Source: an uncultured Bacteroidales bacterium (GTDB taxonomy: Bacteria > Bacteroidota > Bacteroidia > Bacteroidales > PUMT01). Taken from it: DNA of 64,000 nucleotides. Positions 46,404-52,971 of the stretch are shown piece after piece. Numbering within the stretch: the first letter of the stretch is position 1; every line of letters starts with the position of its first letter. The DNA lies in the NCBI GenBank assembly GCA_964421595.1, contig CAYQXY010000014.1, forward strand, positions 10,536-74,535, written 5' to 3'. Made by a program: the position numbers and the translations under genes. The notes beneath the pieces are model-generated. The model did no database searches. It was not told the origin of the DNA and saw only the letters and a list, made by a program, of their open reading frames with translations.

Positions 46404-46590
46404 TCGTTAATAAATATATATTTTTAAAGCTCAGTAATCTTGTTTTATCAATTCAGCCACTGAATACTGACTGAGTATTTATATTTTATGGCGCTCCGGA
46501 CTGACAACAAAAATAGTTCTTTTGTCCGGCAATAAAGTGCCGGCCTTATACGAAAGATGATTAAAATGCTAAATTAACATCAAAATTATA

Positions 46591-46598
46591 AAACCATA
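46591..46598 (-). promoter_or_regulatory. Candidate -7 promoter box for metF
   Basis: The minus strand reads TAATTTTG (TAnnTTTG). This implies a metF leader of about 180 nt. Confidence 0.35.
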
Positions 46599-46708: not shown

Positions 46709-46744
46709 AAAAAAACCGGGGCAGCAGTAAAACTGCTAACCCGG
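46709..46744 (-). terminator. Rho-independent terminator after metY
   Basis: The minus strand reads GCCGGGTTAGCAGTTTTACTGCTGCCCCGG followed by TTTTTTT. It starts about 35 nt after the metY stop. Confidence 0.7.
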
Positions 46745-46778: not shown

Positions 46779-49522
<2,744 letters not shown>

Positions 49523-49624
49523 GATTAATCATTATTTAAAAGAAGTTTGTATTAGATTTAGTATATACCCCCACGACCGGTTACCTTGACCGGAATGAAG
49601 AAGCCTCACATATAGGAGGGATTA

Positions 49625-49768
49625 TCAATGCATGCTGCGCATGCCGCGCATCAACATGTGCATGGGTATAAGCAAAGGAAAGGCAGGAATGAAAACGAAT
49701 GCGGGAAAGACCGGAGCTGGCTGACCGGATTCCTGGTTTTTAAAGTTCAATCTGTTATTATTCTTCAT
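49625..49768 (-). CDS. 47-codon Met-codon-rich mini-ORF in the leader (candidate leader peptide; may be non-coding)
   Basis: My manual translation is MKNNNRLNFKNQESGQPAPVFPAFVFIPAFPLLIPMHMLMRGMRSMH*. It is too short for the ORF track. The ATG lies 19 nt after the riboswitch P1 3' arm. Five of the last 12 sense codons are ATG. Confidence 0.3.
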   Translation of the reverse strand: MKNNNRLNFKNQESGQPAPVFPAFVFIPAFPLLIPMHMLMRGMRSMH

Positions 49769-49786
49769 GTGTAAACCGGTTTTGAG

Positions 49787-49882
49787 TTTATAATCCCCTT
49801 GGGGCAGGTTTTAGCACCTTTTCTCTGGTAAGAGGGTTGCTAGAGCTTCATTGAGCCTGTTCTCTCTGCTCTTCTTTATAAA
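49787..49882 (-). promoter_or_regulatory. SAM-I (S-box) riboswitch aptamer
   Basis: The minus strand reads UUUAUAA-AGAAGAGCAGAGAGAACAGGCUCAAUGAAGCUCUAGCAACCCUCUUACCAGAGAAAAGGUGCUAAAACCUGCCCCAAGGGGA-UUAUAAA. P1 is UUUAUAA/UUAUAAA, P2 is GAGC/GCUC, P3 is CUCU/AGAG and P4 is CCCC/GGGG. The conserved strings AUGAAGC..GCAACC and AGGUGCUAA are in the expected order. Confidence 0.8.
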
Positions 49883-49921
49883 TCAAACCCTTTTGTGGAC
49901 GGGTATTGAATTTTACTATTG

Positions 49922-49929
49922 CAAAAATA
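49922..49929 (-). promoter_or_regulatory. Candidate -7 promoter box driving the riboswitch/aspartokinase/metY transcript
   Basis: The minus strand reads TATTTTTG (TAnnTTTG), about 40 nt upstream of the aptamer P1. Confidence 0.45.
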
Positions 49930-50252: not shown

Positions 50253-51440
50253 CTAAGGGGTAAAAGTAGTTACTGCCTCATGTTCCGGGAATCCCTTAAG
50301 AATGCTTCCACCCGATAAATATACGGAACCTGCTGTATCCCGAAGGTTATAGTTCAGGGTCATCGACTCGGCATATGCACCACATGAATGGATCTGAAGA
50401 AAATCGCCCCGGGTTGTTTCCGGAAGTTCAATATCCTTTGCAAAAACATCAGAAGACTCACAAACCGGACCTACTACATCATATTTCTCAGTTGGACCTG
50501 AACTGCTTATACTTGTAATTTTGTGCTTTGCCTGGTAAAGGGAAGGCCTCATAAGCTCTGTCATACCAGCATCGGCAATTATAAATTTCTTTCCAATACC
50601 CTGTTTTGTATAAAGTACCTTTGTTACAATTCTGCCACTCTGCCCCACCAGGCTTCTGCCAAGCTCAAAATGGATGCTGGTTTCTTCCGGAACATTGAGG
50701 TTTTCAGAAAAAACAGTAAAGAAAGAATTAAAGTCAGGAATCGGATTTCCCTCAGGATTAGTGTAATCAATGCCGAATCCACCACCAAGGTTCAGAATAT
50801 GTCCACCGTAACCTTTAATATTAAACTCTTCCCATATATGGTTTACCCTTGCACAAAGTCTCCTGAATGGCTCAAGTGTAGTAATTTGCGAACCAATATG
50901 AAAATGCAGTCCCATAAACTCAATATTAGGCGACTTGTCGCATATATCGAGTGCGGTCCTGAGATGTGGCAGACTAATGCCAAACTTGTTCTCATCCATG
51001 CCGGTTGCAATATAATGGTGTGTCGCGGCATCTACAGACGGATTCACCCTGAGTGCAATTCGGGCTACTCTACCGGTGAGCCTGGCAAGATCAGAGATAA
51101 CCTCCACCTCTTCAACAGATTCGCAATTAATACAGAATATCTCCTCTTCAAGAGCAAGGACTATATCAGCATCAGATTTGCCTACACCGGCAAAGACTAT
51201 CCCCTTGGCCGGGAACCCTGATTCAAGAGCTTTTCGAATCTCATTGCCACTCACACAATCGACTCCAAAGCCGTAATCTCTGATTCTTGAAGAAATAACG
51301 GAATTATGGTTTGCTTTAATTGCATAGTGAATGGTATAATTATGCATTGCAGCAGCCTGTGATGCACTGGAAAGCGTGTCATCCAGCAAATCAAGGTCGT
51401 AAAGATAAAAAGGTGTTTTTATACCTGTGAAATCAACCAT
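50253..51440 (-). CDS. lysA: Diaminopimelate decarboxylase
   Basis: 395 aa. It has YAIKAN (PLP Lys), GFGVDCVSGNE, NLGGGFGI, CESSD and HSCGAY, the fold-type III decarboxylase blocks. Confidence 0.92.
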   Translation of the reverse strand: MVDFTGIKTPFYLYDLDLLDDTLSSASQAAAMHNYTIHYAIKANHNSVISSRIRDYGFGVDCVSGNEIRKALESGFPAKGIVFAGVGKSDADIVLALEEEIFCINCESVEEVEVISDLARLTGRVARIALRVNPSVDAATHHYIATGMDENKFGISLPHLRTALDICDKSPNIEFMGLHFHIGSQITTLEPFRRLCARVNHIWEEFNIKGYGGHILNLGGGFGIDYTNPEGNPIPDFNSFFTVFSENLNVPEETSIHFELGRSLVGQSGRIVTKVLYTKQGIGKKFIIADAGMTELMRPSLYQAKHKITSISSSGPTEKYDVVGPVCESSDVFAKDIELPETTRGDFLQIHSCGAYAESMTLNYNLRDTAGSVYLSGGSILKGFPEHEAVTTFTP

Positions 51441-52768
51441 GGATCATTGATTTTTGTCTGATTACTGAACAGAAAATTATTTAATGAGCGAAGAACCTCT
51501 ATCCTCTGCTCTTCAGGAACAACAATACTGATATTATTCCTGCTTCCTCCGAATGAGATCATTTTAACATTGAAATGCCTCAATGAATCAAGTATTCTCA
51601 CCGCCCGGTCCTGATGCTGCTCCAGTATATCACCAACAACGCAGACTATAGCCTGACCGGCTTCAGCCGATACTGCTCCCAGGCTCCCAAGTTCATTTTC
51701 AATCTCTGCAAGATGACGTGGATTGTCAATTGTTACGGATACTGATATTTCAGATGTTGTTATAACATCAATGGGCGTCTTATATTTTTCAAAGATGGCG
51801 AATATCCTGCTCAAAAAACCATATGCATTTAACATCCTGTCTGACCTGATCCTGATGACAGTTATACCCTCCTTCGCCGCAACAGCTGTAATACCTTTTT
51901 TCTCAATATCAGAACGGATTGTAGTACCGGCTGCAACAGGATCAAGCGTATTTTTAAGCTTGATTGTAATATTATTATTACTGGCAGGCCAGACACATGA
52001 AGGATGTAATATCTTTGCCCCGAAATATGCCAACTCTGCTGCTTCATCAAATGACATTTCCCTGATGGGGAAAGTATTATCAACAATTCTGGGGTCGTTA
52101 TTCCTTACACCGTCAATATCGGTCCATATTTCTATAGAATCAGCCATCAGAGCAGCTCCTGCCAGTGTGGCAGTGTAGTCGCTCCCGCCTCTTTTCAGGT
52201 TGCTGGTATTCCCGGCCTGATCGAGGCAAATATACCCCTGGGTCAGAAACCTGCCAACCGGAGCTTCTCCAATAATCCCCTGTAATCTTTGAGTTATATC
52301 GCTTATTGACGGCTCATCATCAGAACCGGTACTCATGAAGTCGAGGGCATTTAGCCATGTGATGGCAATTTCCTGAGAATTCATATAAAGCGCAAACAAT
52401 TCAGATGTAATTATCTCACCCTGAGCCAGCAACCAGTTCTCTTCATGAATACTGTAATCACGCCTGATCCGGCTTTGAATTATATTAAAGCGATCATGAA
52501 TTGAACTTTGCGCAATTGCGAGCGATTCGGCATCATCAAAAAGGCTGATGCTTGTCTGCATAAAATGATCCCTTAGTTTCTCAAGCAGCATCACTGCCCT
52601 GTCATCTCCACATTTCCATGAATCAGACGCATCTACAAGAGTATTTGTCACACCGCTCATGGCGGAAACTACAACAAAACAATTGCTGTTTTTTTCTATT
52701 AACCGGGCAACCTGTCTTATTCTCTCTGCATTACCAAGAGAAGTCCCCCCAAATTTCATTACAATCAT
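51419..52768 (-). CDS. lysC: Aspartate kinase (Lys-operon copy)
   Basis: I chose the start at ATG 52768 (MIVMKFGGTSLG). The track's 52789 is a GTG. The blocks KRGGSDYTATLAGAAL, SFDEAAELAYFGAKILHP and two ACT-like repeats are present. The 3' end overlaps lysA by 22 nt. Confidence 0.9.
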   Translation of the reverse strand: MIVMKFGGTSLGNAERIRQVARLIEKNSNCFVVVSAMSGVTNTLVDASDSWKCGDDRAVMLLEKLRDHFMQTSISLFDDAESLAIAQSSIHDRFNIIQSRIRRDYSIHEENWLLAQGEIITSELFALYMNSQEIAITWLNALDFMSTGSDDEPSISDITQRLQGIIGEAPVGRFLTQGYICLDQAGNTSNLKRGGSDYTATLAGAALMADSIEIWTDIDGVRNNDPRIVDNTFPIREMSFDEAAELAYFGAKILHPSCVWPASNNNITIKLKNTLDPVAAGTTIRSDIEKKGITAVAAKEGITVIRIRSDRMLNAYGFLSRIFAIFEKYKTPIDVITTSEISVSVTIDNPRHLAEIENELGSLGAVSAEAGQAIVCVVGDILEQHQDRAVRILDSLRHFNVKMISFGGSRNNISIVVPEEQRIEVLRSLNNFLFSNQTKINDPWLISQV

Positions 52769-52971
52769 AAACTGATAATTTTTAAACACAAAGTAAGCAA
52801 AGCTGGCTGGAACAATAAAACTTTTAACACCATTTCAACATTTTTATAACTTTATGTTTATTTTTTAACAAAGTGGGCTATATACCTGCTAATAGCACTT
52901 TAACAATATGACATGTAATATGATAGTTGTGATTTTGTTGATATTAACCGGACACAAATACAGGAAAATAA

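Follow-up and report, generated by a model that had tools for sequence, protein, structure and literature searches.

A methionine-codon-rich leader reading frame behind a SAM-I riboswitch in Bacteroidales, and a candidate two-input control of the aspartokinase-metY operon

To our knowledge, methionine is the sole common amino-acid pathway without textbook ribosome-mediated leader-peptide control, and methionine regulons are ascribed to MetJ, to S-box or T-box elements, or to the SAM-II/III riboswitches that respond to S-adenosylmethionine (SAM). Here we describe the leader of an aspartokinase-metY operon in which a SAM-I riboswitch aptamer is followed by a conserved open reading frame (ORF) of 47 codons with a cluster of methionine codons at its end. 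The leader lies in a stretch of 64,000 nucleotides (nt), hereafter the window, from the metagenome-assembled genome of an uncultured Bacteroidales bacterium from saline or soda sediments; all coordinates are positions in this window.

Several described systems share single traits with this locus. S-box leaders, for example those of Bacillus subtilis yitJ/metI, and the classic SAM-I leaders of Bacteroidia likewise place an RF00162 aptamer ahead of methionine-pathway genes, but in the terminator-type leaders the terminator adjoins the aptamer, whereas here a conserved 47-codon ORF follows and the gene is 263 nt away. Classical leader peptides (trpL, hisL, thrL, leuL, pheL and Bacteroid-trp, RF01692, a motif listed in PMC2864571) resemble the locus in being short ORFs with codons for the end product close to the stop; the ORF described here is, however, about three times longer, is conserved past the regulatory codons and stands behind a riboswitch. 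Classical attenuators furthermore combine a terminator with a competing antiterminator, a pair that we could not define in this leader.

Attenuators that depend on an upstream ORF (uORF) and are mediated by Rho include tnaC, speFL, mgtL/mgtA, corL and Bordetella cruR, the last with a Rho utilization (rut) site inside the uORF (PMC12360218). In these systems downstream transcription depends on whether ribosomes occupy the region around the stop codon, several of them have conserved arrest peptides, and mgtA joins a riboswitch-like leader to a codon-sensing uORF. By analogy, we propose a comparable decision here, with the differences that methionine would join SAM as the signal, that Rho dependence, a rut site and stalling are putative, and that the host belongs to another phylum, whose ribosomes do without Shine-Dalgarno pairing at initiation.

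Mycobacterium tuberculosis B12 riboswitches control translated uORFs that modulate downstream genes, one of which is metE (PMC11260477). This system also has a riboswitch-controlled uORF and a target in methionine synthesis, but its aptamer is of another class, it works by occlusion and termination-reinitiation, and it has no run of end-product codons; as the stop codon of our leader ORF lies about 100 nt from the aspartokinase start, direct translational coupling is unlikely here. In Xanthomonas campestris, uncharged initiator tRNA-Met is a second ligand of a SAM-I riboswitch (PMC7270179), so that one met leader integrates the states of the SAM and the methionine/tRNA pools. An earlier reading of the window from its letters alone (the original prediction) had known of no description of combined SAM and Met-tRNA sensing, which the Xanthomonas leader qualifies; the mechanism does differ, since the tRNA is bound there by the RNA expression platform, whereas here a translating ribosome would read it at AUG codons. 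At the metA gene of S. meliloti, a SAM-II leader controls translation from a distance (PMC9373788).

Our literature search found neither a leader peptide joined to a SAM riboswitch in Bacteroidetes nor a methionine-codon attenuator. What appears to be new here is the joining of a SAM-I aptamer to a conserved, translated-type leader ORF rich in methionine codons; leader-peptide and uORF attenuation as such is known, and uORF-dependent attenuation (PMC12360218) and riboswitch-uORF coupling (PMC11260477) are precedents for the steps proposed below.

A reading frame under selection behind the SAM-I aptamer

The promoter-proximal leader consists of the following elements.

49922..49929, minus strand: Bacteroidetes-type -7 promoter box TAnnTTTG (TATTTTTG), read directly from the sequence
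49887..49904, minus strand: inferred small 5' hairpin ACCC-N10-GGGU, directly before helix P1 of the aptamer
49785..49884, minus strand: SAM-I (S-box) aptamer, full-length match to the Rfam model RF00162 (74.2 bits)
49769..49784, minus strand: 16-nt spacer between P1 and the leader ORF, containing a conserved AAAACC; near-constant spacing in 14 leaders
49625..49768, minus strand: 47-codon leader ORF, unannotated, stop codon TGA at 49625-49627; start, frame and length conserved in 15 leaders

RF00162 matches the aptamer over model positions 1-108 (E = 1.5e-15; gathering score 44.4). With a score over the curated threshold and the whole four-helix aptamer covered, its assignment to the SAM-I class is genuine, and SAM binding is predicted from it. 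The 4.85-Mb genome holds a single SAM-I copy, which is this leader element. It stands 5' of methionine-pathway genes (aspartokinase and metY), a placement typical of sulfur/methionine leaders, and homologous SAM-I leaders stand before aspartokinase, metH, metY or metA. From the end of the aptamer to the aspartokinase ATG (49522) we measured 263 nt, an interval in which a terminator scan of the minus strand found no hairpin followed by a U-tract. The minus-strand aptamer, the TAnnTTTG box, the distance (given as about 265 nt) and the lack of a canonical terminator before aspartokinase had all been read correctly in the original prediction.

For comparison, SAM-I leaders were gathered from 60 relatives, and the 17 of the same family were aligned (alignment A1), in which the TAnnTTTG box is retained. 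The CCC...GGG pairing of the 5' hairpin is present in most A1 leaders and absent from that of G014, a relative discussed below; this hairpin may act as a stabiliser of the 5' end or as a competitor of an extended P1. Its GGG opens the sequence GGGUUU, which could lengthen P1 by pairing with the conserved AAAACC before the leader AUG, with thin covariation.

The leader ORF translates to MKNNNRLNFKNQESGQPAPVFPAFVFIPAFPLLIPMHMLMRGMRSMH and its 3' end reads ...MHMLMRGMRSMH. Its ATG lies 16 nt past the Rfam end of the aptamer; the 47-codon ORF itself had been predicted, at a gap of 19 nt that was counted from another aptamer end. We analysed it in 15 leaders: 13 from the genus, one from the sister genus, and that of G014, which lacks the aptamer. 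Start position, frame, length (43-48 codons) and an H-M-x-M-x-x-M-x-x-M tail are common to all 15, so that the loss of frame or Met run in related leaders, which the original prediction had named as a refutation, is not observed. In the genus and sister-genus leaders the tail follows the pattern H-M-(L/F)-M-(R/Q)-x-M-x-(S/G)-M, and the consensus of the whole peptide is MKxxxxxxxxYxPGQPxAxxPAFIxIPxFPLLIPKHMLMRxMRSMH.

The pattern of substitution is that of a coding sequence. The frame of the leader ORF is the only one free of stops in all 15 sequences. In the 23 codons ahead of the Met run, the first, second and third codon positions have nucleotide entropies of 0.77, 0.55 and 1.40, and Leu codons alternate between TTR and CTN among the leaders. 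The ratio of nonsynonymous to synonymous changes (pN/pS, Nei-Gojobori) in these codons (-23 to -1 before the run) is 0.35 in the ORF frame and 1.13 and 1.76 in the other frames, compared to 0.27 for aspartokinase codons 2-60. Codons 2-11 of the leader ORF are almost neutral (0.85), and invariant residues concentrate in the last 24 positions. At the level of sequence comparison, the leader ORF is under protein-level purifying selection, mostly over its C-terminal ~35 residues. Frame conservation together with selection of the coding type leads us to regard the ORF as real, and its translation is predicted.

These results bear on the proposal that the region is non-coding, its palindromes serving as RNA structure or as the DNA site of a repressor and the ORF being accidental. 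CATG is self-complementary, and the GCATGC repeat with its 9-bp spacing does resemble a tandem operator. Yet frame, start and stop are kept 15/15, the three-base periodicity and the pN/pS of 0.35 are confined to the ORF frame, and the distance between the GCATGC copies is altered by 3 bp in both G010 and G014, which a hairpin loop can absorb but a protein operator, as a rule, cannot. A comparison of the leader with Rfam gave no family either, and permissive E-values return only noise. The coding-selection tests contradict this proposal, to which we assign a very small probability.

The peptide family has a narrow range of about 15 species. Pfam gives no match to the leader peptide, and in a collection of 5.8 billion proteins a single two-member cluster resembles it, so in effect the ORF has never been annotated. 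A hidden Markov model search of 401 genomes of the order returned strong matches in this genus only, and pattern scans of genome and metagenome collections recovered ~15 known species plus three near-identical contigs; other pattern matches, for example in Flavivirga and Croceivirga, were discarded as chance matches within coding DNA. Each genome has one copy, always in the leader of a Met gene. A plus-strand ORF of 48 amino acids (49628-49774), antisense to the leader ORF, is not a gene, as it is interrupted by stops in relatives.

The genome of G014 belongs to the same genus, is 98% complete and contains no SAM-I aptamer anywhere. Its leader (L033, contig G014:C4, minus strand, ~1396-1700) nevertheless retains the promoter box, the ORF, aspartokinase and the three hairpins H1, H2 and H3ext described below; the ORF reads MKSLKTEIRVYTPGRPSAALPAFLFVPSFPLLIPKHMLMCGMRRSMH, with the promoter box ~25-30 nt ahead of it. 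Maintenance of the ORF leader without an aptamer argues for a functional module of its own rather than filler of an expression platform.

Methionine codons, hairpin H1 and the leaders of other lineages

Two overlapping features make up the end of the ORF.

49628..49663, minus strand: Met-rich tail M-H-M-L-M-R-G-M-R-S-M-H, from the codon table of 15 leaders
49630..49644, minus strand: hairpin H1, GCAUGC-GCA-GCAUGC, containing the last two AUG codons; pairing compared in 15 leaders

Five of the last 12 sense codons in this genome are AUG, as originally noted. From the window composition ATG makes up ~1.6% of triplets, and simple arithmetic then puts at least five in 12 by chance at ~1e-6. Four AUGs in the last 11 codons are invariant among relatives, the first Met of the window being K or R elsewhere. 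A cluster of regulatory codons near the stop is what leader-peptide attenuators contain, and the conserved frame and the coding-type selection likewise point to the short ORF that such attenuators place upstream of an amino-acid biosynthetic operon.

The nucleotides of the Met run are near-invariant, with entropies of 0.26/0.22/0.37 at codon positions 1/2/3. This is more invariance than coding requires and therefore indicates an RNA-level constraint added to the coding one. Each GCAUGC arm of H1 has one of the last two AUGs at its core, and the stem has five pairs identical in 15/15 leaders and a sixth that varies in one, whereas the loop is variable (CGC, CAC, CUC, CUA, CCC, CCU) and tolerates 3-nt insertions. 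G010 has an insertion that makes the stem longer and brings the stop codon into the loop, so that the 3' arm is untranslated yet retained; this arm and the invariant stem mark H1 as an RNA-level feature. Of the alternative hairpins originally suggested, the AUGC/GCAU pairing survives within the invariant H1, whereas UGCGC/GCGCA is broken in six of the 15 leaders.

Other parts of the tail speak for the codons. The first two invariant Mets (CAU-AUG-UUK-AUG) lie outside H1, and sister-genus metH leaders retain R-M-R-G-M with synonymous changes (CGU, GGA) that destroy the GCAUGC palindrome. Taken together with the Cys runs found on unrelated RNA sequences in other lineages (see below), these observations indicate that codon or peptide identity is selected as well. 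The alternative raised at the outset, that AUGs arise as a by-product of self-complementary CATG palindromes, thus applies to the last two AUGs.

A broader survey covered 77 Bacteroidia SAM-I leaders, 60 sampled from 300 genomes of the class and 17 from the order and family. A classic terminator lies within 55 nt past the aptamer in 43 of the 77. Among the terminator-less leaders, 14 have a closed ATG ORF of 15-70 codons starting 5-20 nt past the aptamer (8-16 nt in the other lineages); some of these ORFs are mutually related, leaving about ten independent lineages. Their last 12 codons contain on average 3.43 Met+Cys codons, compared to 0.59 in 264 control ORFs from the same loci (Mann-Whitney p = 1.5e-7), and at least three are found in 10/14 tails versus 2.3% of controls. 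Across the other lineages the Met/Cys-rich tail is common and the peptide body is not. Examples are MKIKTVSKNLILSRSLFPAIIIFVCCFFMDMRGMRM before metY, ...RMRGMMYGF and ...MCSMMMHH before sister-genus metH, and the pure Cys-run tail ...TPCCWCCCCCN before metY. Coding selection, the Met tail, the autonomy seen in G014 and the enrichment in this survey together support, by sequence comparison, a Met-codon leader ORF mounted on a SAM riboswitch.

Leader ORFs with runs of Cys codons occur before metY or metA in L059, L065, L027 and L073 (…TPCCWCCCCCN, …WCSSYCCC, …CKLCCMQCPF) and may be the Cys-sensing equivalents of the ORFs with Met runs. In L008 (G053:C27), a leader without terminator, metH starts 12 nt after the SAM-I aptamer; it is probably a translational SAM-I switch in a phylum that initiates without Shine-Dalgarno pairing, and its start at +12 suggests that, in this class, a start codon so spaced is within reach of SAM-I control. 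The sequencing runs that contain the sequence of the window are metagenomic DNA, and the one metatranscriptome found holds relatives' aptamers only. This salt-lake metatranscriptome (run X24) includes an RNA-derived contig in which a relative's aptamer is followed, past a loose end at window position 49774, by …ATC ATG AAG AAA TTT ATG TTT GGT TTT ATG; this further leader ORF has its start at the same spot, is Met-rich from the beginning and is present in RNA.

Two further explanations have to be weighed against this evidence. The ORF could encode a trans-acting small protein of ~47 residues, the first gene of the operon, in which the Met tail would serve protein function in place of a sensor in cis. 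Selection of the same strength as on the adjacent enzyme (pN/pS 0.35 versus 0.27), a conserved length, the many invariant or near-invariant non-Met positions (F24, L33, P35, H37, P17, P28, P31) and the persistence of the ORF in G014 without the aptamer would all suit such a protein. A protein acting in trans would, however, hardly be expected as a single copy that is always tied to a Met-gene leader, lacks a protein family and has practically no database relatives. Its N-terminal ten codons are near-neutral (0.85) and conservation climbs C-terminally over ~35 residues, roughly the extent of the ribosomal exit tunnel; the frozen synonymous sites of the Met run indicate RNA constraint, and the equivalently placed ORFs of other lineages have the Met/Cys tail in common but not the body. 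We consider a trans-acting product rather unlikely.

Alternatively, the ORF could be a ribosome shield or coupling device that keeps Rho off or stabilises the RNA, in which case the AUG run would follow from the GCAUGC hairpin and no methionine would be sensed. Riboswitch-controlled uORFs acting through translation are known (PMC11260477; mgtL and corL in PMC12360218). The invariant H1 stem with its variable loop, the 3' arm kept past the stop codon of G010 and the radical changes between the last Mets (R, H, L, P) are all compatible with this explanation. It does not account for the invariance of the first two Mets (H-M-x-M) outside H1, for the M-R-G-M that sister-genus leaders retain without the palindrome, or for Met/Cys tails on unrelated RNA sequences across lineages, CCWCCCCC included; a shield in the aptamer-less G014 leader would moreover have nothing to sense, yet that leader is conserved. 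A plain shield therefore seems improbable to us, to about the same degree as a trans-acting protein.

Structures after the stop codon and the operon

Between the leader ORF and the end of the operon we distinguish the following features.

49604..49619, minus strand: hairpin H2, CCUCC...GGAGG type, just after the stop codon; from folding of 15 leaders
49568..49601, minus strand: hairpin H3ext, with the apical part CCGGUCAAGGUAACCGG at 49577-49593; from folding and covariation in 15 leaders
49523..49567, minus strand: A/U-rich unstructured 45 nt before the aspartokinase start; from sequence and folding
48104..49522, minus strand: monofunctional aspartokinase, the first enzyme gene of the operon (TIGR00657, 335 bits)
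46779..48158, minus strand: O-acetylhomoserine sulfhydrylase, metY (TIGR01326, 698 bits)

In most relatives H2 begins 0-10 nt past the stop codon, with a stem sequence that differs in almost every species and a mean folding energy of -5.5 kcal/mol in the relatives' leaders versus -2.9 kcal/mol in shuffles. H3ext has a conserved apex, CCGGYCAAGGYURCCGG, which covaries from CG to UA in five sequences; at its base, predicted in most of the 15, a pyrimidine-rich 5' strand pairs with a G-rich 3' strand, and the sequence varies. The stretch from the stop codon to H3ext folds better than dinucleotide shuffles in 15/15 leaders (mean z -1.5), and a U-rich stretch follows H3ext in 8/15, for example UUUUUAUG in G001 and UUUGUUAU in G014. 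The H3ext motif is unique within the window. The comparison thereby establishes, besides the aptamer, the selection on the ORF, its Met tail and the autonomy of the ORF module, also H1 and the H3 apex as conserved sequence features.

Several candidate structures were rejected. Neither H2 nor H3ext qualifies as a canonical terminator here, H2 being weak and H3ext having no U-tract. A long-range antiterminator in which the 3' end of the aptamer (GGGGAUUAUAA) would pair with UGAUAAUCCC at the stop codon forms 9-11 pairs in G000, G011 and G001 and is absent from G013, G006 and G002; as UGAUAAUCCC also persists in the aptamer-less G014, this is not a general mechanism. In the window the aptamer 3' end can also pair over a long range with TGATAATCCC, a pairing that is not conserved. 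Global structure was dismissed too, since shuffled sequences fold as well as the 265-nt and 401-nt leaders (z +1.06 and +0.21); consistent structure is limited to the stretch from the stop codon to H3ext. The body of the ORF is rich in C and poor in G, its C/G ratio of ~2 ranking at the 97th percentile for the window; a rut site in it is no more than putative, as the skew is seen in this genus and is absent from analogous ORFs elsewhere.

A canonical terminator read from the sequence follows metY at ~46709-46744 (GCCGGG...CCCGG-TTTTTTT); a textbook terminator thus ends the operon, and the organism does use them. Beyond it comes metF, with a promoter-like box of its own and a leader of ~180 nt (46404-46598, minus strand) with a hairpin of the GGCCGGCAC-UUUAUU-GCCGGAC type, in which Rfam finds no family at gathering scores. 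Directly upstream of the leader, a second aspartokinase of the lysine-sensitive type (NF006570, 382 bits) overlaps lysA (50253-52789, minus strand); a lysine-type enzyme beside lysA points to one aspartokinase per branch, for lysine and for methionine. Rho is encoded in the genome (match of 634.6 bits).

A two-input reading and what it would mean

The reading that we put forward is a two-input leader, in which a riboswitch-gated, translated ORF would add a Met-tRNA/ribosome input to the SAM control of aspartokinase-metY; we give it an even chance of being right. Ribosomes of Bacteroidetes do not rely on Shine-Dalgarno pairing and need unstructured, A/U-rich leaders. SAM would stabilise P1 and thereby remove an A/U-rich, single-stranded landing region for ribosomes from the vicinity of the AUG 16 nt away, lowering initiation on the leader ORF. 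Where the ORF is translated its sequence would matter, above all the last ~35 residues on which the comparison detects selection. Continuation of the transcript into aspartokinase-metY would then depend on the ribosomes on the ORF. Under a shortage of Met-tRNA these would stall at the four to five AUG codons just ahead of the stop, melt H1, cover H2 and keep the leader occupied, which would favour read-through against Rho or against a weak, terminator-like H3ext. An ORF left untranslated at high SAM, or quickly vacated when methionine is ample, would expose a naked leader to termination or decay. The net output would be an operon that is on only at low SAM, and most strongly when Met-tRNA is low as well.

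Within this scheme the Rho step is held loosely: the presence of Rho and the C-rich, G-poor ORF body would fit uORF-dependent Rho attenuation, but the skew is absent from analogous ORFs of other lineages. This is one of several points that weigh against the two-input reading. We infer the gating of ORF initiation by the aptamer from its spacing only. The last two AUGs are inseparable from the invariant hairpin H1. In the window H2 is weak (-3.7, p = 0.26), H3ext is not followed by a U-tract and no intrinsic terminator was found after the ORF; H1, H2 and H3ext can coexist, and neither a mutually exclusive antiterminator/terminator pair nor a conserved alternative pairing was found. Finally, the conservation of non-Met residues exceeds what a plain hungry-codon attenuator needs. 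The ribosome-mediated attenuator layout of the original prediction accordingly holds in part: a Met-codon leader ORF on a SAM riboswitch agrees with the sequence comparison, whereas a terminator/antiterminator toggle was not found and conservation of the peptide extends well past the Met codons, something a classical attenuator has no need for.

The ribosomal exit tunnel accommodates ~35 residues. Conservation over about this length, with invariant residues clustered toward the C terminus and pN/pS falling from 0.85 to 0.35, is the pattern of regulatory arrest peptides such as TnaC, SpeFL and SecM, and the gradient suggests that the nascent chain tunes stalling. In a stronger form of this idea, the C-terminal ~35 residues (…PAFxFIPxFPLLIPKHMxMRxMxSM) would themselves be an arrest peptide through which elongation or termination at the Met run responds to methionine supply, as Met-tRNA or as free methionine or SAM in the exit tunnel, which we regard as distinctly unlikely. 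It would act in series with the SAM riboswitch, RNA and ribosome each sensing one partner of the Met/SAM pair, and would give bacteria an equivalent, alongside TnaC/SpeFL, to the MTO1 peptide of plant CGS1.

If the two-input reading is true, Bacteroidales would gauge SAM and, through Met-tRNA at the ribosome, methionine on one and the same transcript. A SAM-I riboswitch in a phylum that initiates without Shine-Dalgarno pairing could then target a leader ORF in place of a terminator, and the ORF module would be able to work alone, as in G014. The leader ORFs add an unannotated, strongly conserved family of micro-genes that is relevant to genome annotation and to studies of ribosome stalling.

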